Origin: Gemmatimonadaceae bacterium
Lineage (GTDB): Bacteria > Gemmatimonadota > Gemmatimonadetes > Gemmatimonadales > Gemmatimonadaceae
Reading direction: 5' to 3'
Length of the DNA stretch: 64,000 nt
Assembly (NCBI GenBank): GCA_035253585.1
Contig: DATFBY010000110.1
Span: 47,875 to 111,874 of the forward strand
Shown one piece after another: positions 7,374 through 42,687 of the stretch. The position numbers and the translations under genes are program-made. Each line of letters opens with the position of its first letter. The first letter of the stretch is position 1. The notes beneath the pieces are model-generated. The model saw only the letters and a program-made list of their open reading frames with translations, was not told the origin of the DNA and made no database searches.

Positions 7374-7376
7374 GCC

Positions 7377-10088
7377 TCAGACCTCCACGCGTGGGCGGAA
7401 GATCCGCAGAAGATCGGCGGCGGTCTTCGCGTCGCGCCGCGCGCGGTGAGCGAACTCGCCATCGGGCTCCAGCTCCACGACTTCCTGCCAACGCGCGATC
7501 GCGTCGCGGTAGCGATGCCGCTCGAAGAACAGCACGCCGGCCAGATACAGCGCGCCCGTGTGCTGCGGATCGAAGCGGAGGATGCGCTGCACCGAGGTGG
7601 CGGCATCGTCGTGCCGCTCGAGCTCGATCAGCGTCTCGGTGAGCGCCACCAGGGCCTTGAGGTGATACGGATCCTGCTTGAGCAGCGAGATGAGCGGATC
7701 GAGCGCGTCGCGCGTGCGGGTGAGCTTTCGGCGCACGCTGGCGAGCTCGAGAATCGCCTCGGCGTACGTCGGTACCGCCTCCAGTGCCGCCAGCAGCGCG
7801 GTCTCCGCCTCATTGTACTGCCCCACGGTGCCTAACAAGCGGGCGAGCTCGTAGTGGACCACGGCGAAATGACGGTCGAGGTCGAGCGCGTTACGATAGG
7901 CCGAAATCGCGCCGCGAATGTCGCCGGCCGCGCGCGCGACGTCGCCCATCTGCTTGAGGACGTCGGCGCGCGCCGGCTCGAGCCGCCTGGCCCGCTCGAG
8001 CAGCTCGAGGGCACCGCGAGGGTCGCCGGCCTCGGCCCTCGCCGATGCGACCAGCAGCAGCGTCTCGACGCCTGACGAGTCGGTTTCCAGAAGCTGCTCG
8101 GCGACCGGCCGCGCTTCCTCGGCACGGCCAAGGGCGAGTAGGGCCCGCGTCTCGCCGGCCAGCGCGCGGGGCGCGATGCCGTTCATCGTTCGCGCGGTGC
8201 GATAGCGCTCCAGCGCCTCGCCATAGAGTCCCTGCCGCGCGAACGCATCGCCGAGTAGGGTGAGTCCTTCCACACGGTCAGCGCCGCGCGAAAGTGCGCG
8301 GCTGACCTCGGTGGCTGCACGCTCGAACAGGCCCTTCGACAGATAGTCCCGAGCGAGCGAGTATGGGCCAGCATCCGATGGTGGCGCGGGCTGCTGTGCC
8401 GCTGCGCTCTGCTTGAGCTGATCGAACAGATTGTCCAGAGAGCGAGGATCGAACGAAAACGCATCGACCTGCGCTTCGACACGTCGCTCCCCGGTCATGT
8501 CTGGTACGATGGCGAGCTCGAGATCCTCGTACTCGACATCGAGCGCGAGCTGAAAGCGCTGCTGCACGTAGTACGGGTCGAGCTCCAGGGCGCGCTTGGT
8601 CGCGCGGAGTGCACCCTCGAAGTCGCCGAGGTTGGAAAGGGTGAAGCTCAGGTTGTAGTGCGCTTCGGCGTAGTCGGCCTTCGCTTGGATGGCGCGTCCG
8701 AAGGCGTTGCGCGCGTCCTCGTGCTTCTTGAGCTCCACCAGCACCAGACCGACACCGTTCCACGCCACGGGATGCTCGCCCTCGATCGCCAGCGCCTGAC
8801 GATACGCCTCGAGCGCCAAGTGCAGGCGCTTCCCCCGAAACAAGAGCAACGCCAGGTTGAGCCACGCCTTGATGAAAGTGCCGTGCGCTGCGATGGCGGC
8901 GCGGAACTCGTCGATCGCGTCCTCCGTCTCGCCTGCGTGGTAGAGCGCGACGCCGAGGTTGTTGCGCGCGATGGCGTAGTCGTCGTCGAGCGCCAGCGCC
9001 TTCTTGTAGCTGTCGACCGCGTCGGCGATACGGCCCGTCTGGTGCATCGCGACCCCGAGCTCGCACCAGAGCTTCGGGCTCCCGCTCTGCTTCTGCAGCA
9101 CGCGCTGGTAGAGGTCGATCGCCTGCCCCGCGTCGCGCGTGAGCAGGTGCACCTCTGCCATCGCCTGCATCACGAGCGCGTGATCTTCGCCACGCTCGAG
9201 CGCCAGCTTGTACTCGCGCAGCGCCTCGCTGTAGTAGCCCTTCTGCCGGAATGCGAGACCGAGGTTGTAGTGCGCCAGCTGCTTGTCGTCGGCGACCTCG
9301 AGGCGCGCCGAGCGGCGCTCCTGGCGCTCGGGCAGCATCTCCTGGAAGCGCGAGCTGTTGTAGCGGTCGAGCGAGAGATTCGTCTGAGCGCGAGACAGCG
9401 AGGGGTTGAGCTCGATGGCGCGTCGCGTCGCTACCCGCGCTTCTTCGTGCCGTCCAGCATCGCCTAACACGAAGCCCATCAGGTAGTGGGCATCGGCGTT
9501 GTCCGGATTCAGCTGGATCGACTTCTTCAGTGCCGCGAGCGCGTCATCGTTGAGCCCGCGATTGTACAGCACTTCGCCGATGTAGAAGTGTAAGAGTGAG
9601 CTCTCCGGCTCCAGCTTCTTGGCGCGCTCGAACCAGCGTTGCGCGCGATCGAGATCGCCGCTGGCCTTCTCGGCGAGTCCGAGCTGCACGATCGACGCGA
9701 CGTCCTTGGCGTGGTACTTCAGGAGCTCCGTGAATTCGGCGATCGCTTCCTTGCTGTCGCCCAGCGTCGCATATGCCCGCCCCAGCTCCCAACGCGCCGC
9801 GCGGTTCGAGGGATCGAGTCGAAGACGCTCCTTGAGCTCGGTAACCCGGCGCTCGTAGTAACCCGTGTTGAAGTACGCAATCTCCAGATTGCGCTGTGCC
9901 ACTTCCATCTTCGGGTCGATCTCGAGGGCGCGGGTGAACGCGCCCACCGCTTCCTCGTACAGCCCCTTGTTGTAATAGAGGACGCCGAGGTTGTTGTGCG
10001 CCCCCGCGTCCGACGAATCGATCCGCCGGGCGAACGAGCGCAAGATCGAGCGATCGCGCTCCGAAGTTGGGGACGCCTGCATGATCAC
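7377..10088 (-). CDS. Large TPR-repeat protein (903 aa)
   Basis: Dozens of canonical 34-aa TPR units (…AHYNLG…AL.LDP…) run along the entire length. A GTG start follows 1 nt after the cheC stop. Confidence 0.7.
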   Translation of the reverse strand: MIMQASPTSERDRSILRSFARRIDSSDAGAHNNLGVLYYNKGLYEEAVGAFTRALEIDPKMEVAQRNLEIAYFNTGYYERRVTELKERLRLDPSNRAARWELGRAYATLGDSKEAIAEFTELLKYHAKDVASIVQLGLAEKASGDLDRAQRWFERAKKLEPESSLLHFYIGEVLYNRGLNDDALAALKKSIQLNPDNADAHYLMGFVLGDAGRHEEARVATRRAIELNPSLSRAQTNLSLDRYNSSRFQEMLPERQERRSARLEVADDKQLAHYNLGLAFRQKGYYSEALREYKLALERGEDHALVMQAMAEVHLLTRDAGQAIDLYQRVLQKQSGSPKLWCELGVAMHQTGRIADAVDSYKKALALDDDYAIARNNLGVALYHAGETEDAIDEFRAAIAAHGTFIKAWLNLALLLFRGKRLHLALEAYRQALAIEGEHPVAWNGVGLVLVELKKHEDARNAFGRAIQAKADYAEAHYNLSFTLSNLGDFEGALRATKRALELDPYYVQQRFQLALDVEYEDLELAIVPDMTGERRVEAQVDAFSFDPRSLDNLFDQLKQSAAAQQPAPPSDAGPYSLARDYLSKGLFERAATEVSRALSRGADRVEGLTLLGDAFARQGLYGEALERYRTARTMNGIAPRALAGETRALLALGRAEEARPVAEQLLETDSSGVETLLLVASARAEAGDPRGALELLERARRLEPARADVLKQMGDVARAAGDIRGAISAYRNALDLDRHFAVVHYELARLLGTVGQYNEAETALLAALEAVPTYAEAILELASVRRKLTRTRDALDPLISLLKQDPYHLKALVALTETLIELERHDDAATSVQRILRFDPQHTGALYLAGVLFFERHRYRDAIARWQEVVELEPDGEFAHRARRDAKTAADLLRIFRPRVEV

Positions 10089-10720: not shown

Positions 10721-12307
10721 TTAGAGGAGGCTACCGACGTCGACGATCAATGCGGGCGCGCCATCCGAGAGGATGGTGGCGCCGCTGAACACCCCAACTG
10801 CGTCCTGCACGGCGTCGAACGGCTTCACAACGATGTCCTGCTGTCCAGTGAGCTCATCGACGAGCAATCCCGCTCGCCGCTCGCCCATCTCGAGAACGAT
10901 GACTTGCGCTTTCGCACGCGGCTCCTCGGGGAGCCGTATGATGTTCCTGAAGCGGATCAGGGGAAGCACTTCGTCGCGCATCACCAGTACATCGTGTCCC
11001 TTCACGCGACGGAGCGCCTCGGGCTGGAGCTCGGCCGTCTCGCTCACGTGCGTGAGCGGCACCGCGTACATCTCCCGGTCCACGCGCGCCAAGAGCGCGC
11101 GCACGATCGCCAGCGTCACGGGCAGGCGCACGGTGACCGTCGTCCCCTGTCCCGGCGTACTCCGAATCTCGACGCCGCCGCCTAACGAGCGAACGCGCGT
11201 GTACACGGCGTCGACCCCCACGCCTCGACCCGAGAGATCGGTGACCATTTCGGCCGTGGAGAATCCCGGACGGGCGATGATTCGAATGAGCTCCTCCTCG
11301 CCGACCTCGCGCGTCGGATCGTCGATCAATCCGAGCTCGGCCGCTTTGCGGAGGACGCGGTGGCGGTCGATGCCGCGGCCGTCATCGGACACGCGGATCG
11401 TTACCGACGAGCGCTCGCGTGCCGCGCTCAGCACCAGCCGGCCGCTGCGCGGCTTTCCGGCGGCCTCACGCTCGTCAGGCAGCTCGATACCGTGATCGAT
11501 GGCGTTTCGAAGCAGGTGCACGATCGGATCGCCGATCTCATCGAGCATCGAGCGGTCGAGCTCGATCTCCTTTCCCTCGAGCGCCAGGTCGATCTCCTTT
11601 CCGAGGGCGCGAGCTCCATCACGCACCAGACGCGGGAATCGGTCGAAGATCTGCGCCACCGGTACCATGCGCGCCGTCATGATCTCGTCCTGGAGCTCGG
11701 CGATGAGCTTGCCCGCCTGCGCAACCGTTTCGTCGAGCGCCGGGTCGCTGGTGCCGCTCGTCAGGCTCTGCAATCGGCCGCGCGCGATCACGAGCTCACC
11801 CACGAGATTCATGAGCGAGTCGAGGCGTTTGAGCTCGATGCGCGCGTGCCGCGGCACCTGCGGCGCTTCCATCGGGCGCGGCACGACAGTCGTCGCGCGG
11901 CGCGCGGCGCGCGTTCCAGCCTTGCCCGATTTCGCGCCGGCCACCGACTTCAGGCGCTCGATGAGACGCGTGACGTCGCCCGCCTCCTCGCCTTTGACGA
12001 CGGCTTCGATCGCCAGTTCGAGCACGTCGGCGGCGCGGAAAAGAAGATCCATCACCTCCGGCGTCGCGGGCTGCTCGCCGCGGCGCATGCGCTCGAGCAG
12101 CGTCTCCAACTCGTGCGTCAGCTCGGTGACGTTGGTGTACCCCATCGTCGCGCTCATGCCCTTGATGGTGTGCACCGAACGGAAGATGGCCGCCACCGGC
12201 TCGCTCGCGTCCGGCGTGCGCTCCAGCTCGAGCAGCTGCGCGTTGATCGCCGAGAGATGCTCGCGGCTCTCGGTGAGGAAGAGGTCGGCGTATTTGCTCA
12301 GGTCCAT
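10721..12307 (-). CDS. cheA: Chemotaxis histidine kinase CheA
   Basis: The N-terminal Hpt domain (H in HTIKG), the HATPase_c domain (DDGRGID…GRGVGVD) and the C-terminal CheW-like domain are all recognisable. Confidence 0.85.
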   Translation of the reverse strand: MDLSKYADLFLTESREHLSAINAQLLELERTPDASEPVAAIFRSVHTIKGMSATMGYTNVTELTHELETLLERMRRGEQPATPEVMDLLFRAADVLELAIEAVVKGEEAGDVTRLIERLKSVAGAKSGKAGTRAARRATTVVPRPMEAPQVPRHARIELKRLDSLMNLVGELVIARGRLQSLTSGTSDPALDETVAQAGKLIAELQDEIMTARMVPVAQIFDRFPRLVRDGARALGKEIDLALEGKEIELDRSMLDEIGDPIVHLLRNAIDHGIELPDEREAAGKPRSGRLVLSAARERSSVTIRVSDDGRGIDRHRVLRKAAELGLIDDPTREVGEEELIRIIARPGFSTAEMVTDLSGRGVGVDAVYTRVRSLGGGVEIRSTPGQGTTVTVRLPVTLAIVRALLARVDREMYAVPLTHVSETAELQPEALRRVKGHDVLVMRDEVLPLIRFRNIIRLPEEPRAKAQVIVLEMGERRAGLLVDELTGQQDIVVKPFDAVQDAVGVFSGATILSDGAPALIVDVGSLL

Positions 12308-12317
12308 GGGATTCCTT

Positions 12318-12406
12318 CGAGATTCGAGATTCGAGATTCGTGACGGCGGATATGGAGCTCGTTAGGTGTGCCGTTACGAATCTCGAATCTCGAATCTCGA
12401 ATCTCG
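12318..12406. repeat. Inverted tandem-heptamer hairpin element, (CGAGATT)3…(CGAATCT)4, intergenic between cheA and cheY
   Basis: Read directly. The two arms are exact inverse complements. The spacer contains ctcgttaggtg, a variant of the octamer. Confidence 0.85.
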
Positions 12407-12769
12407 CTATCCGAGCACCCGCTGCACCGCTTCCAGCACGCGGCTCGGCTGGAAGGGCTTCACCACGAAATCCTTCGCGCCCGCCTGAATCGCTTCGACC
12501 ACCAGCGCCTGCTGGCCCATGGCCGAGCACATCAGGATCTTCGCGTTCGGATCGACCTTCGTGATCTCGCGGACCGCGTCGATCCCGCCCATGTCGGGCA
12601 TCACGATGTCCATCGTCACCAGATCGGGACGCAGTTGGTTGTACTTCTCGATCGCCTGAACGCCGGTCTCCGCTTCGCCGATCACCTCGAATCCCGACTG
12701 CGTCAGGATGTCGGCGATCATTGTGCGCATGAAGATGGCGTCGTCGCAGACCAGCACGGTGTGACTCAA
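12407..12769 (-). CDS. cheY: CheY-like single-domain response regulator
   Basis: The receiver fold carries VLVCDDAIFMR, the phospho-acceptor D in LVTMDIVMPDMGG, and KPF. Confidence 0.85.
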   Translation of the reverse strand: MSHTVLVCDDAIFMRTMIADILTQSGFEVIGEAETGVQAIEKYNQLRPDLVTMDIVMPDMGGIDAVREITKVDPNAKILMCSAMGQQALVVEAIQAGAKDFVVKPFQPSRVLEAVQRVLG

Positions 12770-12782
12770 CGGTTCCTCCCGA

Positions 12783-13250
12783 TCAAAGCAGGACGTGCGA
12801 AACGATTTCTTCGAGGTTCAATACCATCACCACCGCGCCGCCTACGCGCGCCGCGGCCTGTACACTCTCCGTCCCGGGCGCCGGTGGCTCGAGCTCCGAC
12901 TCCGCGACGCGCACCACATCGAGCACTTCATCGACCGCCATCCCCACCACCCGCGATCCACGCTCGATCAGCACGATCGAGCCCTCGGCGCGCGACGACG
13001 ACTCGCCGTGCAGGCGCATGCCGAGGTCGACCACCGTGATGATCGTTCCGCGCACGTTGATCAGTCCGGGCACGAACGACGGAGCGCCCGGCACGCGCGT
13101 GCCCGCGCGATGCGGAATGATCTCCCGCACCACACTGAGCTGGATCGCGTACGGCCGCTCGCCCAGCCGGAACATCACCAGCTGGCGCGTCGGAACGTCA
13201 GAGATCGTTTCGGTAGAAGCCAAGGAAGTCCAACGGATCGGGGTGCTCAA
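12783..13250 (-). CDS. cheW: CheW coupling protein
   Basis: CheW-like domain: QLVMFRLGERPYAIQLSVVREII…LINVRGTIITVVDL. The exact start is uncertain, and the ORF overlaps the rluD 3' end. Confidence 0.75.
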   Translation of the reverse strand: MSTPIRWTSLASTETISDVPTRQLVMFRLGERPYAIQLSVVREIIPHRAGTRVPGAPSFVPGLINVRGTIITVVDLGMRLHGESSSRAEGSIVLIERGSRVVGMAVDEVLDVVRVAESELEPPAPGTESVQAAARVGGAVVMVLNLEEIVSHVLL

Positions 13251-14226
13251 CGAGCTCCCGCATCCCCGACGCGGCGACGAGCGACCGCACTAGGTCCGCT
13301 GGCAACGGCGAGCGAAGGTCGACTGCTACCCCCGTCGCAGGATGCGGGAACACCATCCAGGCGGCGTGGAGGAAATGCCGACGGGGTGGAAGCTCGAGCA
13401 GGCGCCGCCCGCCTCCACCGCCGTACGTGTCGTCACCGACCACCGGATGCCCGATCGACGCGAGATGAACGCGAATCTGATGCGTGCGTCCGGTGTGCAG
13501 GTGCGCACGCAAAAGGTCAGTCGCATCGAAGCGAGCGAGCCGGATGAAATCCGTCTTCGCCGCCCTTCCGCTACTGACGATTGCCATGCGCTTTCGGTCT
13601 CGCGGATCGCGTCCAAGTGGGCGGTCTACCGTCACTTTGTCGGTGTTCAGATGTCCCCACGAAAGCGCCGCGTACCGACGTGTGACGCGCCGCGCCGCGA
13701 TGGCGGCTCCGAGGCTTCGGTGAGCCCGGTCGGTCTTCGCCACCAGAAGGAGCCCTGAGGTGTCCTTGTCGAGCCGGTGGACGATCCCCTCGCGGTCCTC
13801 CCCGCCGGATGCGGAAAGCTCCCCTCCGCGCCCTTTGAGAGCGTTTACAAGGGTTCCGGACCAATTTCCGGGGGCTGGATGGACGACCATGCCGGCGGGC
13901 TTGTCGACGACGAGCAGGTCGTCGTCCTCGAACATGATCGACAACGGAATCTGCTCGGCCTCGATCTCGCGCACCGTCGGCGGTGGGATTACGACGCGGA
14001 TCCGCTCGCCGGAGCGTGGCCTATAGCTCGAGCGCTCCCGCCTCCCGTTCACGGTGACGTTGCCATTGGCGATGAGTGTCGCCGCTTGCGTGCGCGACAG
14101 GTCCAGCTGGCGGGCGATAAACAAATCGAGGCGGACATCGCTATCCGCCTCGATCTCGAGCTCGTGTATCGTGGAGCGCGCGTCGCTGTCGCTCAGCCCG
14201 CCGTCGCGCATCGGCGGCTCACGCAC
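13198..14226 (-). CDS. rluD: RluA/RluD-family 23S rRNA pseudouridine synthase
   Basis: The catalytic motif HRLDKDTSGLLLVAKT is present, and an S4-like N-terminus is also present. Confidence 0.8.
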   Translation of the reverse strand: MREPPMRDGGLSDSDARSTIHELEIEADSDVRLDLFIARQLDLSRTQAATLIANGNVTVNGRRERSSYRPRSGERIRVVIPPPTVREIEAEQIPLSIMFEDDDLLVVDKPAGMVVHPAPGNWSGTLVNALKGRGGELSASGGEDREGIVHRLDKDTSGLLLVAKTDRAHRSLGAAIAARRVTRRYAALSWGHLNTDKVTVDRPLGRDPRDRKRMAIVSSGRAAKTDFIRLARFDATDLLRAHLHTGRTHQIRVHLASIGHPVVGDDTYGGGGGRRLLELPPRRHFLHAAWMVFPHPATGVAVDLRSPLPADLVRSLVAASGMRELVEHPDPLDFLGFYRNDL

Positions 14227-14752
14227 CCTCGCTCGCCTTCACCGCCGCGGGTGCCGCACGCGCCGCCTCCTCGCGCTCCTCGCCCCACAGCGACCAGGCC
14301 AGCAGAATGGCGCCGAAGCTCACCGCGATGTCGGCCACGTTGAACGTCGGCCACCGAAGGTCTCCGAACCCCATGTCGAGAAAATCCACGACGCCGAGCG
14401 GCGAGCGAATGCGGTCGATGAGATTTCCGACCGCGCCGGCGCACACGAGTCCGAGCGCCGTGATGCGGAGCGTGTCGTTTTCCCGAGCAGCGCGATAGAG
14501 TCGGCCGAGAATCACCAGCGCAACGATCGTCAGCAGCAGGAAGATCCACCGCGAATACGGTCCGAGGTGGAGACCAAAGGCCGCGCCGCGGTTGTACACC
14601 AGCGTTAGGCGGACCCACTCGCCGATGACCTCGCGAGGCACGCGCATGGGGCGCAGTGCATCGACGGCGATCAGCTTCGTGATCACATCGAGGGTGACGA
14701 TCCCCCCGATCAGCGACCAGAACAGCAGTGCCTTACGACTGCTTCTTTCCAT
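14219..14752 (-). CDS. lspA: Lipoprotein signal peptidase II
   Basis: Four-TM pattern. The conserved NRGAAFG and FNVADIAVSFG motifs are present. Confidence 0.8.
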   Translation of the reverse strand: MERSSRKALLFWSLIGGIVTLDVITKLIAVDALRPMRVPREVIGEWVRLTLVYNRGAAFGLHLGPYSRWIFLLLTIVALVILGRLYRAARENDTLRITALGLVCAGAVGNLIDRIRSPLGVVDFLDMGFGDLRWPTFNVADIAVSFGAILLAWSLWGEEREEAARAAPAAVKASEGA

Positions 14753-15155
14753 CTTCCTCGCGCTGTTTGCAGCTGATGCACAGGCGTGCGTGGGGAAGTG
14801 CGTCGAGCCGGTCGAAGTCGATGTCCTGACCGCAATTGTGGCACTTGCCGAACGTCTCTGGTGACCGGTAGAGGCGGCGCAATGCCTCGTCGATGTGCCA
14901 GAGGAAACGACCCTCTTGGCTGGCGAAAAGAAACGCCTTCTCGCGCTCCATCGCGTCGGTGCCCTGGTCAGCCATATGGAAGGAATACGAGCTGAGATCG
15001 CCGTCCGAGGCCTGCGGCGTCGCGTTGAACGTCTCGCTGTACTGTCCCAGCTCCTTGAGCACGCGCCGGCGCTCTTCGAGTAGTCGTTTCTCGAAGTGCG
15101 CGAGCATTTTCTTGTTCATGGGCTTGGGCTTCTTGGCGCTCGCTGAAGACGGCAT
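14733..15155 (-). CDS. DksA/TraR-family C4 zinc-finger protein
   Basis: CHNCGQDI…CISCKQ zinc-finger at the C-terminus. Confidence 0.7.
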   Translation of the reverse strand: MPSSASAKKPKPMNKKMLAHFEKRLLEERRRVLKELGQYSETFNATPQASDGDLSSYSFHMADQGTDAMEREKAFLFASQEGRFLWHIDEALRRLYRSPETFGKCHNCGQDIDFDRLDALPHARLCISCKQREEDGKKQS

Positions 15156-15160
15156 GCTGT

Positions 15161-18100
15161 TTACACTCTCGTTAGGGCGACATCGACGGCACGACCATCA
15201 AGGTCCATCGTCTGCGTCGCGTCTGGCGTTCCAACGATTGCGTCACCGACGATGAGCTCGACCGCGAGCACCTCGCCGGTGATGTAATCGCCGAACATTC
15301 GTACCACGTTTTCGACTTCGACGTTCCCTTTCACCTGCAATTTGATGCGATCGCTGACCGCGAAGCCCGCGTCCTTCCGTAGACGCTGGATCCGACTCAC
15401 CAGCTCTCGCGCGACACCTTCGGCGACGAGCTCCGGCGTGAGCGTCGGATCGACCGCCGCAAAGTATCCGCCTTCCTCCTTCACGACCAGATCGCCCGCC
15501 GCTCGGTGAACGACGGTCAGGTCGTCTGGTTGCAACACATGTGACGATCCGCCGACCGAGATGACGACCGGCTCTCCGCGTTGGAACGCGTGCAGCGCGG
15601 AATCGGACAACGCCTCGACTGCTTCGGCCGCGGCCTTCGTCGACTTCCCGAATCGTTTGCCGAGCGCGCGGAAATTCGGCTTCCCCTCGAGCCGCACCAG
15701 TGCATCGCCGCTCGACGCCATCTCCACTCGCTTCACGTTGAGCTCGGCGCGCAGTAGTGGCTCCAGCAGCGCCAGAATCTCCGGGTCGCCACCGGGCACA
15801 ACGCATACCACGCGGGCCAACGGCTGCCGCACTTTCAGATCGGCCTCCTCGCGCGCCGCTCGACCCAGCCGCGCGAGCGTCCGCACCTGCTCCATGCCCG
15901 CCTCCAGATCCGCCTCGGGACGCATTCGTGTCTCGGTGACATAAGGCGCCAGATGCACGGAGGTTCCCGTGAGCTGCCGGTGCATCCAATCGGTCACGAA
16001 CGGTGAGAACGGGGCCAACAGGCGCGTCACGCCGGTGAGTACCTCGTGCAGCGTGGCGAAAGCGGCACGATTGTCCGCGCTGGTGACGTCGTAGAAGCGC
16101 TCGCGGTTGAGACGAACGTACCAGTTGGAAACGTCGTCGGTGACGAAGCGCATGACGGACCGCGCGGCGAGGTATGCATCGTATGCCGCCATGGCACCAT
16201 CGACTTCCACCGCGACGCGCGCCAAGCGACCGAGTATCCAACGGTCGATCGGTGGCCTGGCGGCCGGCTCCGGATCTTCGTTGGACGGCGTCCAGCCGAA
16301 GTTGGCCAACTGCGCGAACATCCCCGAATAGATGTTTTTGAGCGTAACGAGGAACTGTCCTGCCGTGTCCCTGATGCCACGTTCGTCGAATCGGCGCGGC
16401 ACCCAGATCTGGCTGGACGTGATGAGAAAAAGCCGCACGGCATCGGCCCCGTATCGAGGGATCACGCTCCACGGATCGACGACGTTGCCGGCGCTCTTCG
16501 ACATCTTCTGTCCCGCCGCGTCGAGCACCAGATCGTTCACGACGACGGCCCGGTACGGCGCCGCGAACGCGTTGGTCGCGGCAAGCCCGCCATCACCGCT
16601 GTTGTTCGGCAGCGCATCACCCAATCCGGTGGCGATGGCCAGCAGCGAGTAAAACCATCCCCTCGTCTGGTCGACACCCTCGGCGATGAAATCCGCCGGA
16701 TACAGTCGCTCGACCTCGGCCTTACCCTCGAACGGATAGTGCCACTGCGCGAACGGCATCGAGCCCGAGTCGAACCAGGTGTCGATGACTTCGGGGACGC
16801 GGTGCATTCGCGCGCGAGATTCGAGATTCGAGATTCGAGATTCGCCGGTGGTGTCGGTCGATCTTTCGTTGGCCTCCGAATCTCGAATCTCGAATCTCGA
16901 ATCTCGACAGCTTTCACACTCCCACGTCAGCCTATCCACCCCCGGCTTGTGCGGATCGAACTCGTTAGGCAGCGATCCGCCGAGCTTGGCCGCGAGCTCG
17001 GCGTAGCTGCCGATTACATCGATGTGTGAGTCGTCGCGCTCGCATAACCATACTGGGAGTGGCGTGCCCCAGTAGCGGTCGCGCGACAGCGCCCAGTCGA
17101 CGTTGTTGACCAGCCACTCGCCGAAGCGGCCAGTGCCGACCTCCTCCGGATGCCAGTCGACTCGCGCGTTGCGCGACAGCATCTGGTCGCGATACGCGGT
17201 GGTGCGCACGAACCAGGAGCCGCGTGCGTAGTACAGGAGCGGTGTGCCGCACCGCCAACAGTGGGGATAGCTGTGCTCGATCGTACCCGCTTTCTGGAGT
17301 ACGCCGCGGCGCTTGAGCTCCTCGATGATGAGCGGGTCGGCGGCCTTCACGAATTTGCCACCCACGACCGGCATGTCCGCGGGAAATTCTCCGCGCGCGT
17401 TGACCGGCTGCAGAAACGCGAGCCCGTGTCGCTGGCCTGCCGCGTAGTCATCGGCGCCAAATGCCGGTGCCATGTGCACGACGCCGGTGCCATCCTCAGC
17501 CGACACGAACGACTCGGCGACGATCAGCTCGTGCTCCCCTTCTCCATCGGTAAACGGCACCCAGTCGAGCGGCCGCTCGTAGCGACGCCCCGCGAGCTCG
17601 CTCCCCTTGATCCGCCTAACGATCTCCCACCGATCGGTCCAGTCGTCGCCGAAAACGGATGCGACGCGAGAGGAGGCGAGGATCAAAGTGGGAAGCGGGA
17701 AGCGGGAAGCGGGAACCGCCTGCGGCGGTTGAGCGTGGCGCCGACGGATCTCCAAATACTCGAGATCTGGATTCACCGCGAGCGCTACGTTGGAAACGAG
17801 CGTCCAGGGCGTCGTCGTCCACACGAGGATACGCTGTTCGTGCGCTTCCCGCTTCCCGCTTCCCGCTTCCCGCATTGCGCTTCCCGCTTCCCGCAGCTTC
17901 ACCGCCACATACACACTCGGATCCTTCACGTCCTTATATCCCTGCGCCACTTCGTGGCTCGACAGCGCCGTGCCGCAGCGGGGGCAGTACGGAAGAATCT
18001 TGTGGCCGCGATAGAGCAGGCCGCGATCGTACAGCGTGCGCAGCGCCCACCACACGCTTTCGACGTAATCGTTCTCGTACGTGATGTATGGATCGCTGTA

Positions 18101-18556
18101 GTCGAGCTGATAGCCGATCCGATCGCTGAGCCTTTCCCAGTCCGACTTGTACTTCCACACACTCTCGCGCGAGAGCTTGTTGAAGCGCTCGACGCCGATC
18201 TCCTCGATCTGCTGCTTGCCGCTGATGTTGAGCTGCTTCTCGACTTCGATCTCAACCGGCAGACCGTGCGTGTCCCAACCCGCTTTTCGGGTGACGTGAT
18301 AGCCCTTCATCACGCGGTAGCGGCAGAAGAGATCCTTCACCGTCCGCGAAAACACGTGATGGATGCCCGGCTTCCCGTTCGCCGTCGGCGGACCCTCGTA
18401 GAACACGAACTCCCGAGCGCCGGCGCGAGCGCGCTCGATCGCGCCGAAGAGATCTTCATCCGCCCAGCGGCGAAGCATCTCCTGCTCGATGTCATCCGCC
18501 GGCCGGTCGGGTGGGAGGAGCGCGAAGCGGTCCACGCCGGGATCGATCGCGGTCAC
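15161..18556 (-). CDS. ileS: Isoleucyl-tRNA synthetase, carrying two in-frame repeat-element insertions
   Basis: The IleS motifs WTTTPWTL, a KMSKS-like motif (KMSKSAGN) and [21 protein letters not shown] are all present. The 1131-aa product is longer than typical IleS because of two heptamer-repeat insertions. Confidence 0.9.
16815..16906. repeat. Inverted tandem-heptamer hairpin element, (CGAGATT)4…(CGAATCT)4, inserted in-frame in ileS
   Basis: Read directly. It encodes …[32 protein letters not shown]…, which lies between the Zn-finger CESC and the conserved MHRVPEV of IleS. Confidence 0.85.
17690..17717. repeat. (GGGAAGC)4 tandem-heptamer arm inside ileS
   Basis: Read directly. The inverted partner arm lies at 17844-17892. 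Confidence 0.85.
17844..17892. repeat. (GCTTCCC)6 tandem-heptamer arm inside ileS, inverted partner of 17690-17717
   Basis: Read directly. The two arms flank the conserved WTTTPWTL core of IleS. The frame is maintained, encoding [17 protein letters not shown]…. Confidence 0.85.
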
Positions 18557-19428
18557 AACCGCTCCAACACGCCCCGCACGAGCGCCGTCAGCCGCGGCTC
18601 GGCTTCATTCGCCACGGCGATGATGTGCTCGACGGTCGCCGGCACCAGCGCGTCCGGCAGACACTGATCGGTGATGATGGAGATGCCTAGCACACGCATG
18701 CCGCCGTGCACCGCAACGATCACCTCGGGCACCGTCGACATCCCGACCACGTCGGCGCCTAACAGGCGCAGCATTCGATACTCGGCACGCGTCTCCAGAT
18801 TCGGGCCTGTCACCGCGACGTAGACGCCCTCGCGCAGGACGATCCGTTGCTCGGCTGCCACCTCTCGCGCCAGCGCGCGAAGCGCCGCGTCGAATGGCTC
18901 CGACATGTCCGGGAAGCGCGGTCCCAACGAATCGTCGTTCGGCCCGATCAGCGGGTTGTCGCCAAGCAGATTGATCTGATCGGCGATCACCATGAGATCG
19001 CCTGGACTCCACAGGGGGTGCATCCCGCCGCACGCGTTCGACACGATCAGCGTCTGGGCGCCCAACGCACGGAGGACTCGCACCGGAAACGTCACCTGCT
19101 GGAGCGAATAGCCCTCGTACCGATGGAAGCGCCCCTGCATCGCAATCACCGTCTTCCCGCCAAGCGTCCCGCACAGGAGCCGTCCGGCGTGCGATTCCAC
19201 CGTCGACAATGGAAAGCCAGGGATGTCTCCGTACTCGATTGTCGTACGGACGTCGATCTCCTTTGCTAGTGCACCCAGGCCGGTGCCCAGGATGATCGCG
19301 ACGTCGGGCCGCGTGCCGAAGCGCTGCCTGACGACAGCGGCCGCACGCTCGATGACAGGGCGCGAGTGCAGCGGCGCCGCCTCGTCCGCGGTGGGCGAGG
19401 CGGCATGTCCTCCGTGGACGGTGGTCAT
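18553..19428 (-). CDS. Purine nucleoside phosphorylase (PunA/MTAP family)
   Basis: The PNP_UDP_1 fold is indicated by [17 protein letters not shown] and VSNACGG. It overlaps the ileS start by 4 nt. Confidence 0.75.
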
Positions 19429-20033
19429 TCCTTCAGCGCCTCCAGCCAGGCGGGAGTCTTGAGCACGTTACGGGGCCCGGAGTCGTGCTCGTCGCGCGCC
19501 GCGTCGCGGGGCACCTGACGCGAATGATCGGGCGCCGCCGGCTGAGCCGGCACCCCACCCGGCGGCGTCGCGCCCGCCTCGGCTGCTTGAAGCTCCGCCA
19601 GCTGCCGCTCGATCATCGACCGCAGCTGAGTGAGGAACGCCCGGCGCGACTTGTCGAGCTGCGTGAGCTCGACCTCGATCTTGCGCGCTTCGCCGCGCGC
19701 GGCCTCGATGATGCGCTCGCCCTCGGCGCGGGCCTCGCGCAAAATGAGCTGCGCTTCGCGCTCGGCTTGCTCGCGCGTCTCGGCCCGCAGCTGCTGCGCC
19801 GAGATGAGCGCGTCGTTCAGCGCCTTGTCACGCTCGCGAAAGGCGCGGAGCTGTTCGTGAAAATTCTTTGCCTTTCCCTCGAGGTCCATGTGCGCTCGCG
19901 TCAGCCGCTCGAGCTCCTCGGCCACGCGCTCGCGGAATTCATCGACCATGGCGCGATCGTAACCGCGCAGCGCGCTGCCGAAATCCCATCGGCGCACGTC
20001 GATTGGTGTCAGCTTGAAGCCTTCGTCCGTCAT
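19425..20033 (-). CDS. divIVA: DivIVA-domain protein
   Basis: The N-terminus [26 protein letters not shown] is the DivIVA signature. The C-terminus is coiled-coil. Confidence 0.75.
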
Positions 20034-20710
20034 CCCGGCCTCCTTCCAAACAAGACGGTGCCCAGCCGCACCATCGTCGCGCCCTCTTCGACCGCGACCT
20101 CGTAGTCGTCGGACATCCCCATCGACAGCTCCGTTGCCGGATGTCCCGCGCTCGCCATCACCTCACGCGCACGTCGAGCGCCGATGAACACTTCCCGTAA
20201 TACACGCTCTTCGGCGCCAAAGGGCGCCATCGTCATGACGCCCAGCACACGGATCCCGGAATGTCCGGCCAGCCGCTCGGCTTCCGCCGGAATATCCTTC
20301 GGCGCGTAGCCGCCCTTCGTCTCCTCACTCGAGACATTGACCTGGATCAGCGCATCGACAGCGCGGCCGCGCGCCTCTCCATACTGGTCGACCGCATCCG
20401 CGAGCCGGACAGTGTCGATCGAATGCACCAGCGAGAAACGATCGAGCGACTTCACCTTGTTCCGCTGTAGGTGGCCGATAAGGTGCCACGCCACCGGGAC
20501 ATCGCTCGCATCGATCTTTTGCAGCGCTTCCTGCACGCGGTTCTCGCCAATGTCGCGAATCCCCGCCTCCCACGCCGCTCGAACCGCGTCGATTCCGTGA
20601 GTCTTGGTCACGGCGACGATCCGCACCTCTTGCCCCTGCCCGCGGGTCGCGGCCGCGGCGATCCTCTGCCGCACGTCAGCCAACCGCGCGGCGAGGTCGT
20701 GAAAAGGCAT
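20030..20710 (-). CDS. yggS: YggS-family pyridoxal-phosphate homeostasis protein
   Basis: Alanine-racemase-N-like fold with a conserved K in AVTKTH, plus HLIGHLQRNK. Confidence 0.8.
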   Translation of the reverse strand: MPFHDLAARLADVRQRIAAAATRGQGQEVRIVAVTKTHGIDAVRAAWEAGIRDIGENRVQEALQKIDASDVPVAWHLIGHLQRNKVKSLDRFSLVHSIDTVRLADAVDQYGEARGRAVDALIQVNVSSEETKGGYAPKDIPAEAERLAGHSGIRVLGVMTMAPFGAEERVLREVFIGARRAREVMASAGHPATELSMGMSDDYEVAVEEGATMVRLGTVLFGRRPG

Positions 20711-20721
20711 AAGCTGGTAAT

Positions 20722-22938
20722 TTACCGGGGGTTACAGCGCGAATCAAGAGAATTTGGCGCCGCTTCCAACCGGACCTCTTCGAGCGCCTGCCGGGGGCAC
20801 TCGAGTATCGCACGGAAGTGCTCCGCGGTGGGGTCGGTACTCGCCCGAATCGCCCGAGGTACACCCGCGATCCGGCCGGCGAGTCGGCCCGTCTCGACGG
20901 TGTCGACCGCGTACGAGAGCGCCGGCGACACGACTGTCTTGTCGACATCGGCTTCGACCAAAACGAGGCCGCGGAGCGCGGGCTCTTCGATCCCGGCTAG
21001 CCGTGCGCGGGTGAGTCCGGCGCTGAGCGCTACCGCGACCGGCCGCCCCCGCGCTCGCGCGTGTTCTCCGATCGCAGCCAGCATCGGCGACTCCTCGCCT
21101 AACGACTCGCGGGCGACGCTGCGCTCCAGAAGCGAGTCGCGCCGCGAAAGCTGCTCCAGGTACCACCTGGCTCCCAGCAGCGGCGCGACGACGACTGTCA
21201 CGTCGCGCCGTACGCCCTCCACCTCCTGGAGATACCAGAGCGGAAAGGAGTCGTTGTCGCCGGCGGTGACCAGCACCGCGTTCGCCGGGGCAGACTCGAG
21301 TAGCATGCGTCCCAGCAGATGCGGGAGATCCGCCTCGGGGATCGAGCGTCGCGTTACCGCGCTCCAGTTGAGCGCCACCGGAAGCGCGGCCACCGCCAGC
21401 CCGAGTGGAACCAGCCGCGGGTGCACACGACGGAACAACGTGACCGCGCCAACACCAGCCCAGGCTCCCCACACCCAGATCGCCAGCACGAAGAAGTAGT
21501 CTCGCTCTCGCGCTTCGTGCGGAGTGTCGTCAGGCAGCACGCCGACGCCGAACGACGCGCCCGCCTTGAAATTCAGATAGATGGCCAGCGCCACGCTCCC
21601 GGCCACGAAGGTCACCAGCAGCGCAAGCCAGCTCCTGCCGTCGGCCCGTTTGTGCACGATGGACCCGGTGATGCCTAACGCGACGAAGAGCAGCGTGATC
21701 GGCGTACGCACGAGCGATGGCTCGACGGTGGGCGTGAGCGACAGCGCGACCTGCCAGTCGCCATACTCGAGCAAATTGGCCAGCTGGATCCAGAGCGGTG
21801 CCTGACGAGGCAGGAAGTCATGTCCGCCGTACTGCGCGCGGCCGACGAGATCCCACAGCGCCGACCAGGTCACGGCATTCCCCGCGTTGAGCGCCGGATC
21901 GTGAACGGCGCGCACCGCCATCACCCCGACGATCGAAAAGCCGACGAGCATGACGACCATTCCGCCCACGGCATGCGACGGCGGGCGTCGCTCCTGCGAA
22001 ACGATGACCGCCGCCACGATGCCTAACGCGACGGCGATCATCAGGGGTGAGGCAAGGCCGACCGCGAACGCCAGCGCCAGAGCGGCGCAGAGAAGCCCGG
22101 CGTCACCCCATCGGATGCGGCTCTCGTCATCCATCGCCGCCAACGCGATAGCGCCGGGCGCGGCGACCAGCGCGCCGAGATGCAGCGGAACCGCCAGCGC
22201 GAAAGTGAACGCCGTGAGAATGAGCCACTTTCCGGAGCGCGTGAGGCCGGCGCGGTGACCGGCTGCCGTCATGCACATCGCCAGCAACAACGACGGCGCG
22301 TAAAGCTCGGTCTCGGTGGCATTGTGCCACACGGTCGACATGGATCCAGCCGTGAGCGCCGCGGCGATCCCGACGACGACCGGTGCGCCGCCGAGCCAGC
22401 GCGTGAAGAGCCAGGCGAGCACGCCCCCCGCGAGAGCCGTGCACACCGCGGACAGGAGATTCGTCGCGTACGCGGTCGGCAGGAACCCGAGCAGCTCGCT
22501 CCAGGCGCGCGCCAACAGCACGAAAAGGGGCGCACCCGGCGGATGCGGAATGCCCAGGACTTCGACCGCCGCGATGAGCTCTCCCGAGTCCCAGAATGTG
22601 AGACCGGGCGCGAGGGTGGCGACGTAGATGGCGAGAAGGAGCGCTCCCGCCAGCAGTGCGGCGAGCGCGGACGCCCGTGTCTCCGCGTCTAGGCGCGAAG
22701 CTGGAGAACCGGCATCTCCGTCGTGGTGCGCGGCGTCCTCCCGGCGATGATGTCGCGTACCTGCGGCGCGGACAGCCCGCGCATGAGCCGACCATTCTGC
22801 GCCACCGAGATGGTGGCTGTCTCCTCCGAGACGACGATCACCAGAGCGTCGGTCTCGTCCGACAAACCGAGCGCCGCCCGGTGGCGAGTGCCTAACGAGC
22901 GGTCCTCCAGCGGCTGCTGCGTCAACGGTAGAATGCAT
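20722..22938 (-). CDS. DUF2723-like polytopic membrane protein (glycosyltransferase-39-like)
   Basis: The motif TFWDSGELIAAVEVLGIPHPPGAPLF is followed by many TM helices. The true start is uncertain and is probably downstream of the cdaA stop at 22689. Confidence 0.5.
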   Translation of the reverse strand: MHSTVDAAAAGGPLVRHSPPGGARFVGRDRRSGDRRLGGDSHHLGGAEWSAHARAVRAAGTRHHRREDAAHHDGDAGSPASRLDAETRASALAALLAGALLLAIYVATLAPGLTFWDSGELIAAVEVLGIPHPPGAPLFVLLARAWSELLGFLPTAYATNLLSAVCTALAGGVLAWLFTRWLGGAPVVVGIAAALTAGSMSTVWHNATETELYAPSLLLAMCMTAAGHRAGLTRSGKWLILTAFTFALAVPLHLGALVAAPGAIALAAMDDESRIRWGDAGLLCAALALAFAVGLASPLMIAVALGIVAAVIVSQERRPPSHAVGGMVVMLVGFSIVGVMAVRAVHDPALNAGNAVTWSALWDLVGRAQYGGHDFLPRQAPLWIQLANLLEYGDWQVALSLTPTVEPSLVRTPITLLFVALGITGSIVHKRADGRSWLALLVTFVAGSVALAIYLNFKAGASFGVGVLPDDTPHEARERDYFFVLAIWVWGAWAGVGAVTLFRRVHPRLVPLGLAVAALPVALNWSAVTRRSIPEADLPHLLGRMLLESAPANAVLVTAGDNDSFPLWYLQEVEGVRRDVTVVVAPLLGARWYLEQLSRRDSLLERSVARESLGEESPMLAAIGEHARARGRPVAVALSAGLTRARLAGIEEPALRGLVLVEADVDKTVVSPALSYAVDTVETGRLAGRIAGVPRAIRASTDPTAEHFRAILECPRQALEEVRLEAAPNSLDSRCNPR

Positions 22939-23480
22939 CCGGCGCCGATGATCGTGTCGCCGCGCACGATGACCGCGCCGTCGTGCAGCGGCGAATACGG
23001 CGTGAAGATTGTCGCCAGCAGGTCCGAGGAGACTTTTGCCTGCATGGAGGTGCCGGACTGCACGTAATCGCCGAGATTCACTTCCCGCTCGAGCGCGATG
23101 ATCGAGCCGATCCCCGACCGGCTCAGCCGCTCCACCGCCTCGGCGATCTCCTCGGCCACTTCACCGACTTCCATGCGCTTGAAGAAGCGCGCCATCGGAG
23201 TTTGGCCCAGGTGAGCGAGCGCCGCGCGAAGCTCCGGCTGGAAGACCACCAGCGCGGCGAACGCGCCGTAAGTGAACACCAGGCCCAGGATGTAGGTGAT
23301 CATCGTGAGCTTGAATGTCCACGCTAGGGCATACGCGAGGACGAGGACCACGATGCCTATCAACATCTGCACCGCGCGCGTGCCGTGAATCAGTAGCAGC
23401 ACGCGGTAGATGACGTAGGCGACGACGATGATCTCCACCGCATCTCGCCATCCGAATTCGAGGATTCGAAACTGGTCCAC
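22689..23480 (-). CDS. cdaA: Diadenylate cyclase CdaA (DAC domain)
   Basis: Three N-terminal TM helices. The DAC motifs GSIIALE, LHDGAVIV, GAGCILP and RHRAALG are present. Confidence 0.8.
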   Translation of the reverse strand: MDQFRILEFGWRDAVEIIVVAYVIYRVLLLIHGTRAVQMLIGIVVLVLAYALAWTFKLTMITYILGLVFTYGAFAALVVFQPELRAALAHLGQTPMARFFKRMEVGEVAEEIAEAVERLSRSGIGSIIALEREVNLGDYVQSGTSMQAKVSSDLLATIFTPYSPLHDGAVIVRGDTIIGAGCILPLTQQPLEDRSLGTRHRAALGLSDETDALVIVVSEETATISVAQNGRLMRGLSAPQVRDIIAGRTPRTTTEMPVLQLRA

Positions 23481-24317
23481 CTACGCTCCCGCCCGGTTCT
23501 GCGCCTGCGTCGTCTGCTGGTCGAAGATCGCCCACGCCACATCGAGCGCGCGGCGATTCGCCTTCACATCGTGAACCCGAAAGATGCGTGCTCCGGCGAC
23601 GAGCGCCATGATGTTCGCCGCAACGGTTCCGTCCACGCGCTCGGCGGGCTCCGTCACACCGCTGAGCTCGCCGATGAAACGCTTCCGCGAGACACCGACG
23701 ACTACAGGAAGACCACGGAGGACGAGCCGATCGAGCTCCGATAGGATTTTGATCGAGTGCTCGCTCCGCTTGGCAAACCCGATCCCCGGGTCGATCGCAA
23801 TCCGGGACTCCTCGACACCCGCTTCGCGCGCGGCCGTGATCCGCTCCTCGAGCTCGGCGAGCACGTCCCCGACCGGGTCATCGCCATAGTGCGCGTGCGC
23901 GTAGGTCCCCATGTCGCTGACCACACCACGCGAGTGCATGAGAATGACACCTGCCCCCGCACTGGCGCAAACCCCGGCCATTCGCGCGTCCAGGCGGAAT
24001 GCCGACACGTCATTGATGACGTCGGCTCCTTCACGCAGCGCGGCTTCGGCGACATCTGACTTGACCGTGTCGACGGAAATGACCGTTCCCGGAAGGCGCT
24101 GTCTCAATTCTGCGACGACCGGCAAGACTCGCCGCCTCTCCTCGTCGACGTTCACCGGCGTCGCGCCCTGTGGCCGCGTGGATTCGCCGCCGATGTCGAG
24201 AATGTCCGCGCCTTCGTCTATCAGCTCGAGGCCGTGGTCGACGGCGGCAGTGCCCGAAAAAAACTTACCCCCGTCGCTGAAGCTGTCGGGGGTAATGTTT
24301 ACGACGCCCATGATCAT
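23481..24317 (-). CDS. folP: Dihydropteroate synthase
   Basis: Pterin-binding fold beginning MIMGVVNITPDSFSDGG…DIGGESTRP. Start chosen at 24317; the ORF-track N-extension runs through the repeat element and was rejected. Confidence 0.8.
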   Translation of the reverse strand: MIMGVVNITPDSFSDGGKFFSGTAAVDHGLELIDEGADILDIGGESTRPQGATPVNVDEERRRVLPVVAELRQRLPGTVISVDTVKSDVAEAALREGADVINDVSAFRLDARMAGVCASAGAGVILMHSRGVVSDMGTYAHAHYGDDPVGDVLAELEERITAAREAGVEESRIAIDPGIGFAKRSEHSIKILSELDRLVLRGLPVVVGVSRKRFIGELSGVTEPAERVDGTVAANIMALVAGARIFRVHDVKANRRALDVAWAIFDQQTTQAQNRAGA

Positions 24318-24365
24318 CGGGCGGGCGAGCGGGAGCGCCCGCTCCCGAATGCGCCAGACGATCAT

Positions 24366-24461
24366 CGAGATTCGAGATTCGAGATTCGAGATTCGGAAGG
24401 GCACACCGCACGAGGTCCGAATCCGCAGTCCCGAATCTCGAATCTCGAATCTCGAATCTCG
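24366..24461. repeat. Inverted tandem-heptamer hairpin element, (CGAGATT)4…(CGAATCT)4, intergenic between ftsH and folP
   Basis: Read directly. It begins about 3 nt after the ftsH stop codon and has a 36-nt spacer. Confidence 0.85.
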
Positions 24462-24465
24462 ATGC

Positions 24466-26448
<1,983 letters not shown>

Positions 26449-33296: not shown

Positions 33297-33473
33297 GTGA
33301 TCTAACTACGAGAAGGAGGCTTGAACGGTGTCAGTGGCCGGCGGTGCCGTCAAGAATGACAACGGCGGCATCCGGCATGAGGCACGAGGCATCCGGGTCT
33401 TGGCGATCGACACTCTCCGCCCAAGACCCGGATGCCCCGATGCCGGATGCCGGATGCCGCCGTTCGCGCTGCT

Positions 33474-34766: not shown

Positions 34767-34768
34767 CG

Positions 34769-42678: not shown

Positions 42679-42687
42679 GAAAGCTCG

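Follow-up and report, generated by a model that had tools for sequence, protein, structure and literature searches.

A 64,000-nucleotide stretch of contig DATFBY010000110.1 (positions 47,875 to 111,874), which comes from a soil bacterium of the Gemmatimonadaceae and is referred to below as the window, carries a family of hairpin elements in which a few tandem heptanucleotide units are followed, after a short spacer, by an array of the complementary units. Three of the elements are built of the unit GAGATTC and lie between cheY and cheA, within the isoleucyl-tRNA synthetase (IleRS) gene ileS, and between ftsH and folP. They are best filed as the Gemmatimonadaceae counterpart, with a unit devoid of a G-tract, of the known heptanucleotide-repeat convergent inverted repeats (PMC4692102). 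On balance, the elements probably belong to a family of heptanucleotide-repeat hairpins that is self-perpetuating or at least tolerated, is kept perfect by slippage together with template switching or recombination from arm to arm, is occasionally copied from one locus to another, and is filtered by selection to harmless positions.

Architecture of the elements in the window

The arrays identified in the window are the following.

Element 1, 12316-12406: 5′ arm (GAGATTC) at 12316-12340, 3.6 units; spacer at 12341-12376, 36 nt; 3′ arm (GAATCTC) at 12377-12406, 4.3 units.
Element 2, 16815-16907: 5′ arm (CGAGATT) at 16815-16844, 4.3 units; spacer at 16845-16876, 32 nt; 3′ arm (CGAATCT) at 16877-16907, 4.4 units.
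Element 3, 24365-24462: 5′ arm (GAGATTC) at 24365-24395, 4.4 units; spacer at 24396-24431, 36 nt; 3′ arm (GAATCTC) at 24432-24462, 4.4 units.
GGGAAGC pair, G-rich arm in the mRNA sense, 17843-17894, minus strand: about seven GGGAAGC units, one of them variant, in ileS loop 1.
GGGAAGC pair, C-rich arm in the mRNA sense, 17686-17715, minus strand: about 3.7 GCTTCCC units, in ileS loop 2.
Element 5, 33361-33464: degenerate hairpin of the unit GGCATCC/GGATGCC, starting about 10 nt past the isocitrate lyase stop codon.

A first-pass annotation of the window had placed three hairpins of this design at the three GAGATTC loci, and both their coordinates and their architecture are as it described. All six GAGATTC arms are scored as 100% matches by Tandem Repeats Finder, with 3.6-4.4 exact units each, and the inverted-repeat arms of the three elements, 30-37 nt long, are complementary to 97-100%. 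Folding of the elements as RNA is predicted to yield stems of -53 to -75 kcal/mol (z = -6.7 to -9.8), whichever strand is taken. With at most one mismatch, the two-unit probe GAGATTCGAGATTC has 17 matches in the window, compared with 0.05 expected by shuffling, and none of 100 shuffles gave as many. The 64 kb contain no exact heptamer array of 3.5 or more units outside an inverted pair, and no comparable exact arrays of at least 3.5 units were found there at the other repeat periods between 4 and 12. The ends of the elements read CG(AGATTCG)n...(CGAATCT)nCG, all five window elements are convergent, that is, with the G-richer arm on the 5′ side, and the repeat units seen are free of stop codons in all six frames when read off the sequences.

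A GANTC site, which is the HinfI or CcrM-type methylation motif, is contained in GAGATTC as well as in the GGGACTC and GGGAATC units of two relatives described below (L106 and L120), so that an arm of these units amounts to a run of such sites 7 bp apart. The site is not general, being absent from the GGGAAGC, GGGAAAC, GGGATTG and GGCATCC units.

Renewal of the arms in related genomes

The relatives retain hairpins at the same sites with changed sequence. In L106, an 82% relative with a syntenic region, hairpins are found at cheY-cheA and ftsH-folP in the same phase past the stop codon, made of alternating GGGACTC and GGCACTC units whose alternation is mirrored in the 3′ arm, and degenerate counterparts are present at all three ileS positions; the four elements lying in the region syntenic with L106 all have positional counterparts there. 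Fourfold degenerate sites of the window and L106 are 56% identical, against 38% at saturation, and the arms are perfect in both genomes. As the neutral sites are nearly saturated and passively inherited arms would decay, this argues that the arms have been renewed in situ. In a second clade (L107, L108 and L109), hairpins occupy both ileS loops and consist of GGGAAAC or GGGATTG units in varied combinations, with the spacer core GGAGCCG common to the clade at ileS site 2. A tree of the IleRS sequences, 120 in all, places the site-2 inserts in no fewer than 4-5 separate clades with insert-free sisters, and loop 1 has a length of 14 to 69 residues, varying even among close relatives. Independent ENA, JGI and NCBI assemblies contain the elements, which lie in frame and have units specific to the lineage.

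The processes involved can be followed among close strains, for which seven clusters of IleRS proteins at least 90% identical within a cluster were examined. Their internal indels all map to the hairpin loops with the exception of one further site near column 890 of cluster c6, where small indels are seen at the protein level in an Ala/Gly-rich stretch. Comparison between close strains had been proposed in the first-pass annotation, and it reveals arms that differ by whole units, including a one-arm expansion by 14 residues (six heptamers) between IleRS proteins at least 90% identical, as well as whole elements that are present in one strain and absent from another. In P0126 the site-2 element has collapsed to C-RESRAV-M, and the corresponding DNA, CGCGAATCCCGCG, looks like a one-unit scar.

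Two pairs of genomes are particularly informative. The ileS DNA of L108 and L120 is 92.9% identical and the loop-1 element is almost unchanged, whereas at site 2 every unit of both arms has changed in concert (GGGGATT to GGGAATC and AATCCCC to GATTCCC) with the GGAGCCG core retained; the site-2 units of L109 are intermediate between the two. Between L106 and L121, whose cheY genes are 97.5% identical, the cheY-cheA spacer has been reverse-complemented in situ, with 22/24 positions identical when inverted and a local score of 20 versus 6, and the 3′ arm of the same hairpin differs by one unit. Polymerase template switching between the arms of an inverted repeat gives both arm homogenisation and spacer inversion (PMC8604942; PMC8794818), and recombination between the arms would yield the two outcomes as well. 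That slippage or recombination acts on the arms, as proposed earlier in place of transposition, is supported by the whole-unit indels, the concerted unit change and the spacer inversion, but copying between loci, by ectopic conversion or by transposition, has to be reckoned with in addition.

Spacers and copying between loci

Evidence for such copying comes from the spacers, which had been described as unrelated, with the arms alone conserved. This holds for spacer 2, which is unrelated to spacers 1 and 3 and to those of ten metagenome hairpins described below, but not for the other two. Spacers 1 and 3 are of equal length and, once one of them is reverse-complemented, are identical at 27/36 positions in an ungapped alignment (75%); the alignment score of 20 compares with a null mean of 6.5 and was not reached in any of 300 shuffles. 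Elements 1 and 3 are therefore copies of a single element, its core as well as its arms. That they face opposite ways with respect to the genes is in keeping with the spacer flip observed between L106 and L121, and since their cores are 75% identical and the neutral sites of the window and L106 only 56%, the copying would postdate that split and would have occurred into occupied sites. Ectopic conversion with the identical arms serving as homology would be the simplest account. No further copies of the shared core were found in the fetched loci or in viral contigs, no direct repeat that could represent a target-site duplication flanks any of the three GAGATTC copies, and a Pfam search of about 30 open reading frames (ORFs) of the 64-kb window returned housekeeping genes only, with no transposase, repetitive extragenic palindrome (REP)-associated tyrosine transposase (RAYT) or reverse transcriptase.

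The octamer motif that had been reported in one of the spacers was not identifiable, the only matches being trivial one-mismatch ones to common GC-rich octamers. The part of spacer 2 at 16845-16860 has 14 of 16 nt in common with window positions 30587-30602, GCCGGTGGTGTCG[G/A]TC, including an exact 12-mer, which may be due to chance or represent captured filler DNA.

Copies within ileS

The gene that hosts element 2 and the GGGAAGC pair is the following.

ileS, 15161-18556, minus strand: IleRS type 2, 1131 aa, assigned by Pfam and homologues.

Element 2 lies in frame and contains no stops, the ileS ORF reading straight across it on the minus strand; that this copy is apparently translated had escaped the first-pass annotation. 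Relative to the ancestral C-GGT-M, which is found at this site in most of the 120 Gemmatimonadaceae IleRS homologues, the element amounts to a net gain of 30 codons just after the CxxC motif. The alignment to the solved IleRS structure 8c8w breaks at element 2, with query residue 551 matching chain residue 504 and query residue 583 matching chain residue 506, and the alignment gaps coincide with the ileS inserts. In loop 1 the GGGAAGC arm represents a 42-nt insertion of six heptamers, which keeps the frame because 42 nt equal 14 codons. Likewise overlooked earlier was that the GGGAAGC arrays form a pair of the same kind around native sequence: the two arms, each in a variable loop, flank 122 nt of conserved coding sequence with the motif WTTTPWTL. 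The arms are 36 nt long and 92% complementary, and both are paired with each other in a predicted long-range fold.

An AlphaFold model of the window IleRS has a mean predicted local distance difference test (pLDDT) value of 79, and the value drops below 50 at residues 226-235, 277-285 and 565-578, which are the three translated repeat segments. Six more short segments unrelated to the elements also fall below 50 (1-6, 495-498, 601-604, 654-663, 688-690 and 717-721), and most of the surrounding core is better modelled. The ileS copies are likely translated as extra low-confidence loops of about 30 residues, which are predicted to lie at the surface. It follows from the stop-free units that one third of insertions would be tolerated wherever a protein accepts a loop. 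Accordingly situated is a 90-nt GAGATTC hairpin in an unrelated organism of 53% GC (L114), which lies in frame inside a family III CoA-transferase domain; as stop-free arrays lengthen spurious frames, the stop-to-stop ORF context of foreign hairpins is noisy, and a truly intragenic position was confirmed for L114 alone.

In the IleRS proteins P0024, P0153 and P0144, loop 1 carries an extra insert inside the heptamer hairpin, translated as VIPAEAGIH...MDTRFRGDD. The insert presumably resembles translations of another widespread palindromic repeat and, if so, a second family would be nested in the hairpin loop. The ENA contig k141_1287188 (L001), 99.7% identical to the window, ends at window position 16859, within the ileS hairpin spacer. 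Assembly from short reads evidently breaks at the hairpins, and gene calls may be truncated as a result, many IleRS entries in the clusters being partial.

Operon junctions

The remaining elements lie between genes. The genes around elements 1 to 3, identified by Pfam and all on the minus strand, are cheA, cheY, cheW, a rluD-like gene, ileS, a PNP-family phosphorylase gene, ftsH, folP and hpt, and this context agrees with the earlier description of a REP-like or miniature inverted-repeat transposable element (MITE)-like family located at operon-internal junctions and inside ileS. The genes adjoining elements 1, 3 and 5 are as follows.

cheA, 10721-12307, minus strand: downstream neighbour of element 1 (Pfam).
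cheY-like response regulator gene, 12407-12769, minus strand: upstream neighbour of element 1 (Pfam).
folP (dihydropteroate synthase), 23481-24365, minus strand: start codon at the edge of the 3′ arm of element 3 (Pfam).
ftsH, 24466-26448, minus strand: upstream neighbour of element 3 (Pfam).
Isocitrate lyase gene, 33474-34766, minus strand: upstream neighbour of element 5.

Elements 1, 3 and 5 begin 2-10 nt past a stop codon. Element 1 occupies the gap from the cheY stop codon (12409-12407) to the Shine-Dalgarno sequence AAGGA and the ATG (12307) of cheA, and the stem of element 3 starts 2 nt past the ftsH stop codon (24468-24466), with the folP ATG (24365-24363) paired within the stem base in the predicted fold. 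The folP start at 24365 matches an independent public annotation and is supported by the N-terminal extension after it, which is conserved with L106. In the more distant relatives L109 and L120, ftsH and folP overlap as TAATG and cheY and cheA are spaced by about 15 nt, from which it follows that the hairpins are insertions into formerly tight junctions; before the insertion, both junctions were probably translationally coupled.

An effect of the transcribed stem-loops on mRNA processing, stability or translational coupling would be plausible. A scan for intrinsic terminators at 11500-25500 gave four terminator-like matches, none coinciding with an element, and no T-run follows any of the elements; a sigma-70 promoter scan found nothing at the elements, and an Rfam search of 11500-25500 with E values up to 1 returned only sub-threshold matches to miRNA precursors (39 bits versus 137 required, and weaker).

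In L107, cheA is represented at 6627-8126 by two ORFs of 221 and 243 aa, about 100 nt apart and with no obvious heptamer array between them, which may be due to frameshifting, to misassembly or to disruption of the gene.

Occurrence beyond the window and polarity

The elements are not unique to the window, as the first-pass annotation had anticipated in calling them a family. In a scan with a single-arm pattern and one genome per species, in which the window's own genome was not among the matches, (GAGATTC)3 was found in more than 104 genome stretches of many phyla (Vibrio, Xanthomonadales, Acidobacteriota, Planctomycetota and others), mostly as plain unpaired arrays. The complete GAGATTC hairpin was found at ten metagenome loci of unrelated organisms with 53-60% GC, where the spacers of 5-39 nt are mutually unrelated and several hairpins begin directly past a stop codon; viral contigs gave no matches to the complete hairpin pattern.

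The arrays from the single-arm scan, taken on either strand, constitute an unbiased set for assessing polarity. Among 90 such arrays, 21 strong partners are convergent and one is divergent, a partner being counted as strong if it is complementary at 17/21 positions or more and no further than 160 nt away; the convergent side scores better in 57 arrays versus 25 (p = 5e-4). In exact-array pairs of several other units, too, the G-richer arm is the 5′ one. Set in a common phase, the 5′-arm units GAGATTC, GGGAAGC, GGGAAAC, GGGATTG, GGGACTC, GGGAATC and GGCATCC are variations on a theme, and 55% of the neighbouring arrays in GAGATTC-bearing loci are within 1-2 mismatches of GAGATTC, compared with 17% of random heptamers from those loci.

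Origin and maintenance of the elements

In the account that we favour, replication slippage would set the number of units, and template switching or recombination between the arms would homogenise the arms and invert the spacer. One unit and one core could then spread through a genome by occasional copying from locus to locus, for which the identical arms would provide the homology, and the elements would persist only where they are harmless, either in the gap that separates a stop codon from the following translation start within an operon or as about 30 extra residues, in frame and free of stops, in a surface loop of a protein. Several observations weigh against this account. Slippage and template switching alone do not explain the strong polarity (G-richer arm 5′ in 21/22 strong partners), which is the main unexplained feature, nor the recurrence of GRGANTC-like units in distant phyla, and the complementary array lying 122 nt away across conserved coding sequence in the GGGAAGC pair is likewise left unexplained. 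Furthermore, the hairpins kept at both operon junctions in two species could reflect selection for function.

Some of these features are what a non-autonomous mobile element similar to MITEs or to REP doublets forming hairpins (REPINs) would display, in which the doublet of arms and core is copied in trans by an enzyme encoded elsewhere, for example a RAYT-type HUH tyrosine transposase, recognising the folded single strand, and in which single arrays are decayed halves. We regard this as rather unlikely. Elements 1 and 3 would be its full-length copies with a common core in opposite orientations, and it could accommodate the use of one unit at three window loci and of one unit at two L106 loci, the independent gains at one ileS loop in several clades, the complete GAGATTC hairpins in unrelated organisms of lower GC, and the strict polarity of the doublets, which recalls the fixed arrangement of REP doublets. 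However, the three copies lack a target-site duplication, no gene for a transposase, a RAYT or a reverse transcriptase was identified in the 64 kb, and spacer 2 and the ten metagenome spacers (5-39 nt) are unrelated. The GGGAAGC arms moreover bracket native coding sequence, which is impossible for an inserted cassette, and the unit change with a retained spacer and the in-situ inversion indicate local processes. Somewhat less probable again are selected, cis-acting RNA stem-loops, functioning either as an RNase III site or 3′-exonuclease barrier that uncouples cistron stability or by juxtaposing stop and start so that termination-reinitiation coupling is preserved. The hairpins fit the gap from stop to start exactly, with the stem 2 nt past the ftsH stop codon and the folP AUG paired in the stem base, the ancestral ftsH-folP state in L109 and L120 is the overlapping TAATG, and many hairpins elsewhere begin 0-17 nt past the stop codon of a long ORF, as in Xanthomonas. 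Both junction hairpins are also kept in two species with compensatory unit changes, although such changes are equally expected from arm-to-arm template switching. Against a selected RNA function, the element is also found inside coding sequences (ileS and the CoA-transferase gene), where such a function makes no sense, more distant relatives with these operons are devoid of junction hairpins, presence and absence differ between strains, no Rfam family corresponds to the elements, and Rehm et al. found no regulatory role (PMC4692102). Neither the mobile-element nor the RNA reading is mutually exclusive with the favoured account, with which both are compatible.

A dedicated activity that imposes polarity, adding G-rich GRGANTC-type heptamers to both of the 3′ ends that flank a break or nick in a telomerase-like or HUH-like manner, seems improbable, and yet it would explain the near-absolute convergent polarity, the like unit theme in Xanthomonadales, cyanobacteria, Acidobacteriota and Gemmatimonadota, the genome-specific units common to many loci, and the ability of complementary arms to bracket pre-existing sequence. 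There is very little to recommend repeats forming G-quadruplexes or i-motifs, a proposal made for the Xanthomonas unit GGGAATC and for GGGGA(C/T)T of Nostoc: G3 tracts are present in GGGAAGC, GGGAAAC, GGGATTG and GGGACTC, and four units are commonest, but GAGATTC has equal architecture, copy number and polarity in the window and at the ten metagenome loci, and the duplex of the paired arms competes with any quadruplex. For GAGATTC the G-quadruplex explanation was rejected, as the unit has no G-tract, and the quadruplex rationale therefore cannot be general. Intrinsic terminators or an assembly artefact are the least credible explanations. The stable hairpins just past stop codons and the public contig L001, which breaks inside the ileS hairpin, would be in keeping with one or the other, but none of the four terminator-like matches at 11500-25500 falls on an element, none of the elements is followed by a T-run and two elements lie inside an intact ORF, and the independent ENA, JGI and NCBI assemblies with in-frame elements of lineage-specific units argue against an artefact.

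Relation to known repeat systems

The closest parallel is found in Xanthomonas, in a publication that the first-pass annotation did not take into account. Rehm et al. (2015; PMC4692102) reported 183-186 GGGAATC heptamer arrays per Xanthomonas genome, with a mode of four units. The arrays are intergenic to 89-93% and intragenic to 7-11%, with the upstream ORF 28 nt away on average; 70-75 convergent array pairs per genome form an inverted repeat, and their function is unknown, with a quadruplex role having been considered (PMC4692102). The excess of heptameric simple sequence repeats in large high-GC genomes goes back to Mrazek et al. (2007), as cited in PMC4692102. The repeats of X. campestris and X. 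axonopodis resemble the window elements in their tandem 7-nt units, in having about four of them, in their always convergent pairs, and in their mostly intergenic location, soon after the upstream ORF or across its stop codon; at shared intergenic sites of close species both length and sequence vary, as here, and the relative L120 uses the Xanthomonas unit GGGAATC itself. The window elements differ in belonging to another phylum, Gemmatimonadota, and in the unit: the Xanthomonas consensus GGGANTN has a G3 tract and is matched by GGGAAGC, whereas GAGATTC has an A at position 2 and no G-tract. The G3-tract consensus defines the published G4 subset and not the architecture. Documented here and not in PMC4692102 are the in-frame copies in an essential gene, the concerted unit turnover with a retained spacer, the in-situ spacer inversion, the core common to two copies, and the arms bracketing native coding sequence.

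REPs and REPINs, which RAYT transposases mobilise (Bertels and Rainey 2011, PMC3116915), are likewise short palindromic extragenic repeats that form fixed inverted doublets and hairpins; they are found directly downstream of genes, have a sequence particular to each genome and are long-lived (PMC3116915). The likeness of the doublets is analogous only, as the arms in the window are tandem heptamers rather than a 20-25-nt imperfect palindrome with a conserved head, and no GTAG head is present; in addition, no RAYT (Y1/HUH) gene, which the repeats usually flank where REPs occur, is seen in the 64-kb window, several copies are intragenic and the spacers are mostly unrelated. In MITEs, terminal inverted repeats enclose a conserved interior common to the copies; in the window, the arms are identical in all three copies and a core is common to copies 1 and 3 (27/36) and is not found in copy 2 or in the ten metagenome hairpins, and the window copies have no target-site duplication. 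Rickettsia palindromic elements (RPEs; Ogata et al. 2000), in the summary given in PMC10969869, are also selfish-looking palindromic inserts that lie in frame in unrelated housekeeping genes, translated as extra segments at the surface that are compatible with the fold. According to that summary they form 100-150-bp families with conserved sequence and peptide, and they are not tandem heptamers and occur in another host lineage; the likeness is functional only, and the two are set apart here by size, composition and host as summarised there rather than by sequence comparison.

The TAACTGA repeats of Beggiatoaceae and cyanobacteria (PMC4679880) are similarly dispersed tandem heptamers of 2-7 units, mostly intergenic and adjacent to gene ends, and occur across phyla. 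In contrast to the window elements, nearly every TAACTGA set is direct (169 direct sets and 1 indirect), and the arrays contain stop codons and lie mainly just upstream of start codons (PMC4679880). Hairpin pairing is not a hallmark of these arrays, unlike the elements described here. The short tandemly repeated repetitive (STRR) heptamers of cyanobacteria, reportedly described by Mazel et al. in 1990, are said to be dispersed tandem heptamer arrays as well.

Among the long simple repeats of many large GC-rich bacterial genomes, heptamers are over-represented most strongly, and both the reason for this and their role are unexplained. The locus and its relatives provide a tractable comparative series of shared sites, differing units, flipped spacers, whole-unit indels and one-unit scars. 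The series shows arms exchanging information, together with a strict polarity for which any mechanism has to account. It also suggests that such hairpins can be carried, in frame, inside an essential aminoacyl-tRNA synthetase. The elements are of relevance for gene annotation, for metagenome assembly, where they cause contig breaks, and for the origin of new disordered loops in proteins.

Other features of the window

A perfect palindrome that is not heptamer-based is located at 37093-37135 and consists of 21 + 1 + 21 nt (GGATGCACGACGGGGCGCTCA T TGAGCGCCCCGTCGTGCATCC), about 160 nt upstream of a penicillin amidase-like gene (37298-40075). The 714-aa ORF at 1762-3906 on the minus strand matches the DnaA ATPase domain (PF00308) in two separate stretches, along with AAA/IstB-like matches, and encodes a duplicated DnaA-like ATPase rather than a canonical DnaA. 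Genes of the glyoxylate shunt (malate synthase and isocitrate lyase), with AceK kinase/phosphatase and isocitrate dehydrogenase nearby, and an ergothioneine-type cluster (GCS2, histidine methyltransferase and FGE-sulfatase/DinB) are found at 33474-36385, 52060-55087 and 40437-44253. Two adjacent paralogous short ORFs on the minus strand (55157-56005 and 56010-56780) have CarboxypepD_reg and TonB-receptor Plug domains and no barrel, and may represent a split or truncated pair of TonB-dependent receptors. They are followed at 56959-59442, also on the minus strand, by an 827-aa ORF rich in Ala, Arg and Glu, with nested tandem repeats of 15, 30, 45, 60 and 90 nt at 57479-58536; its product gives weak matches to histone H1-like HC2 and extensin low-complexity models and is probably coiled or disordered.

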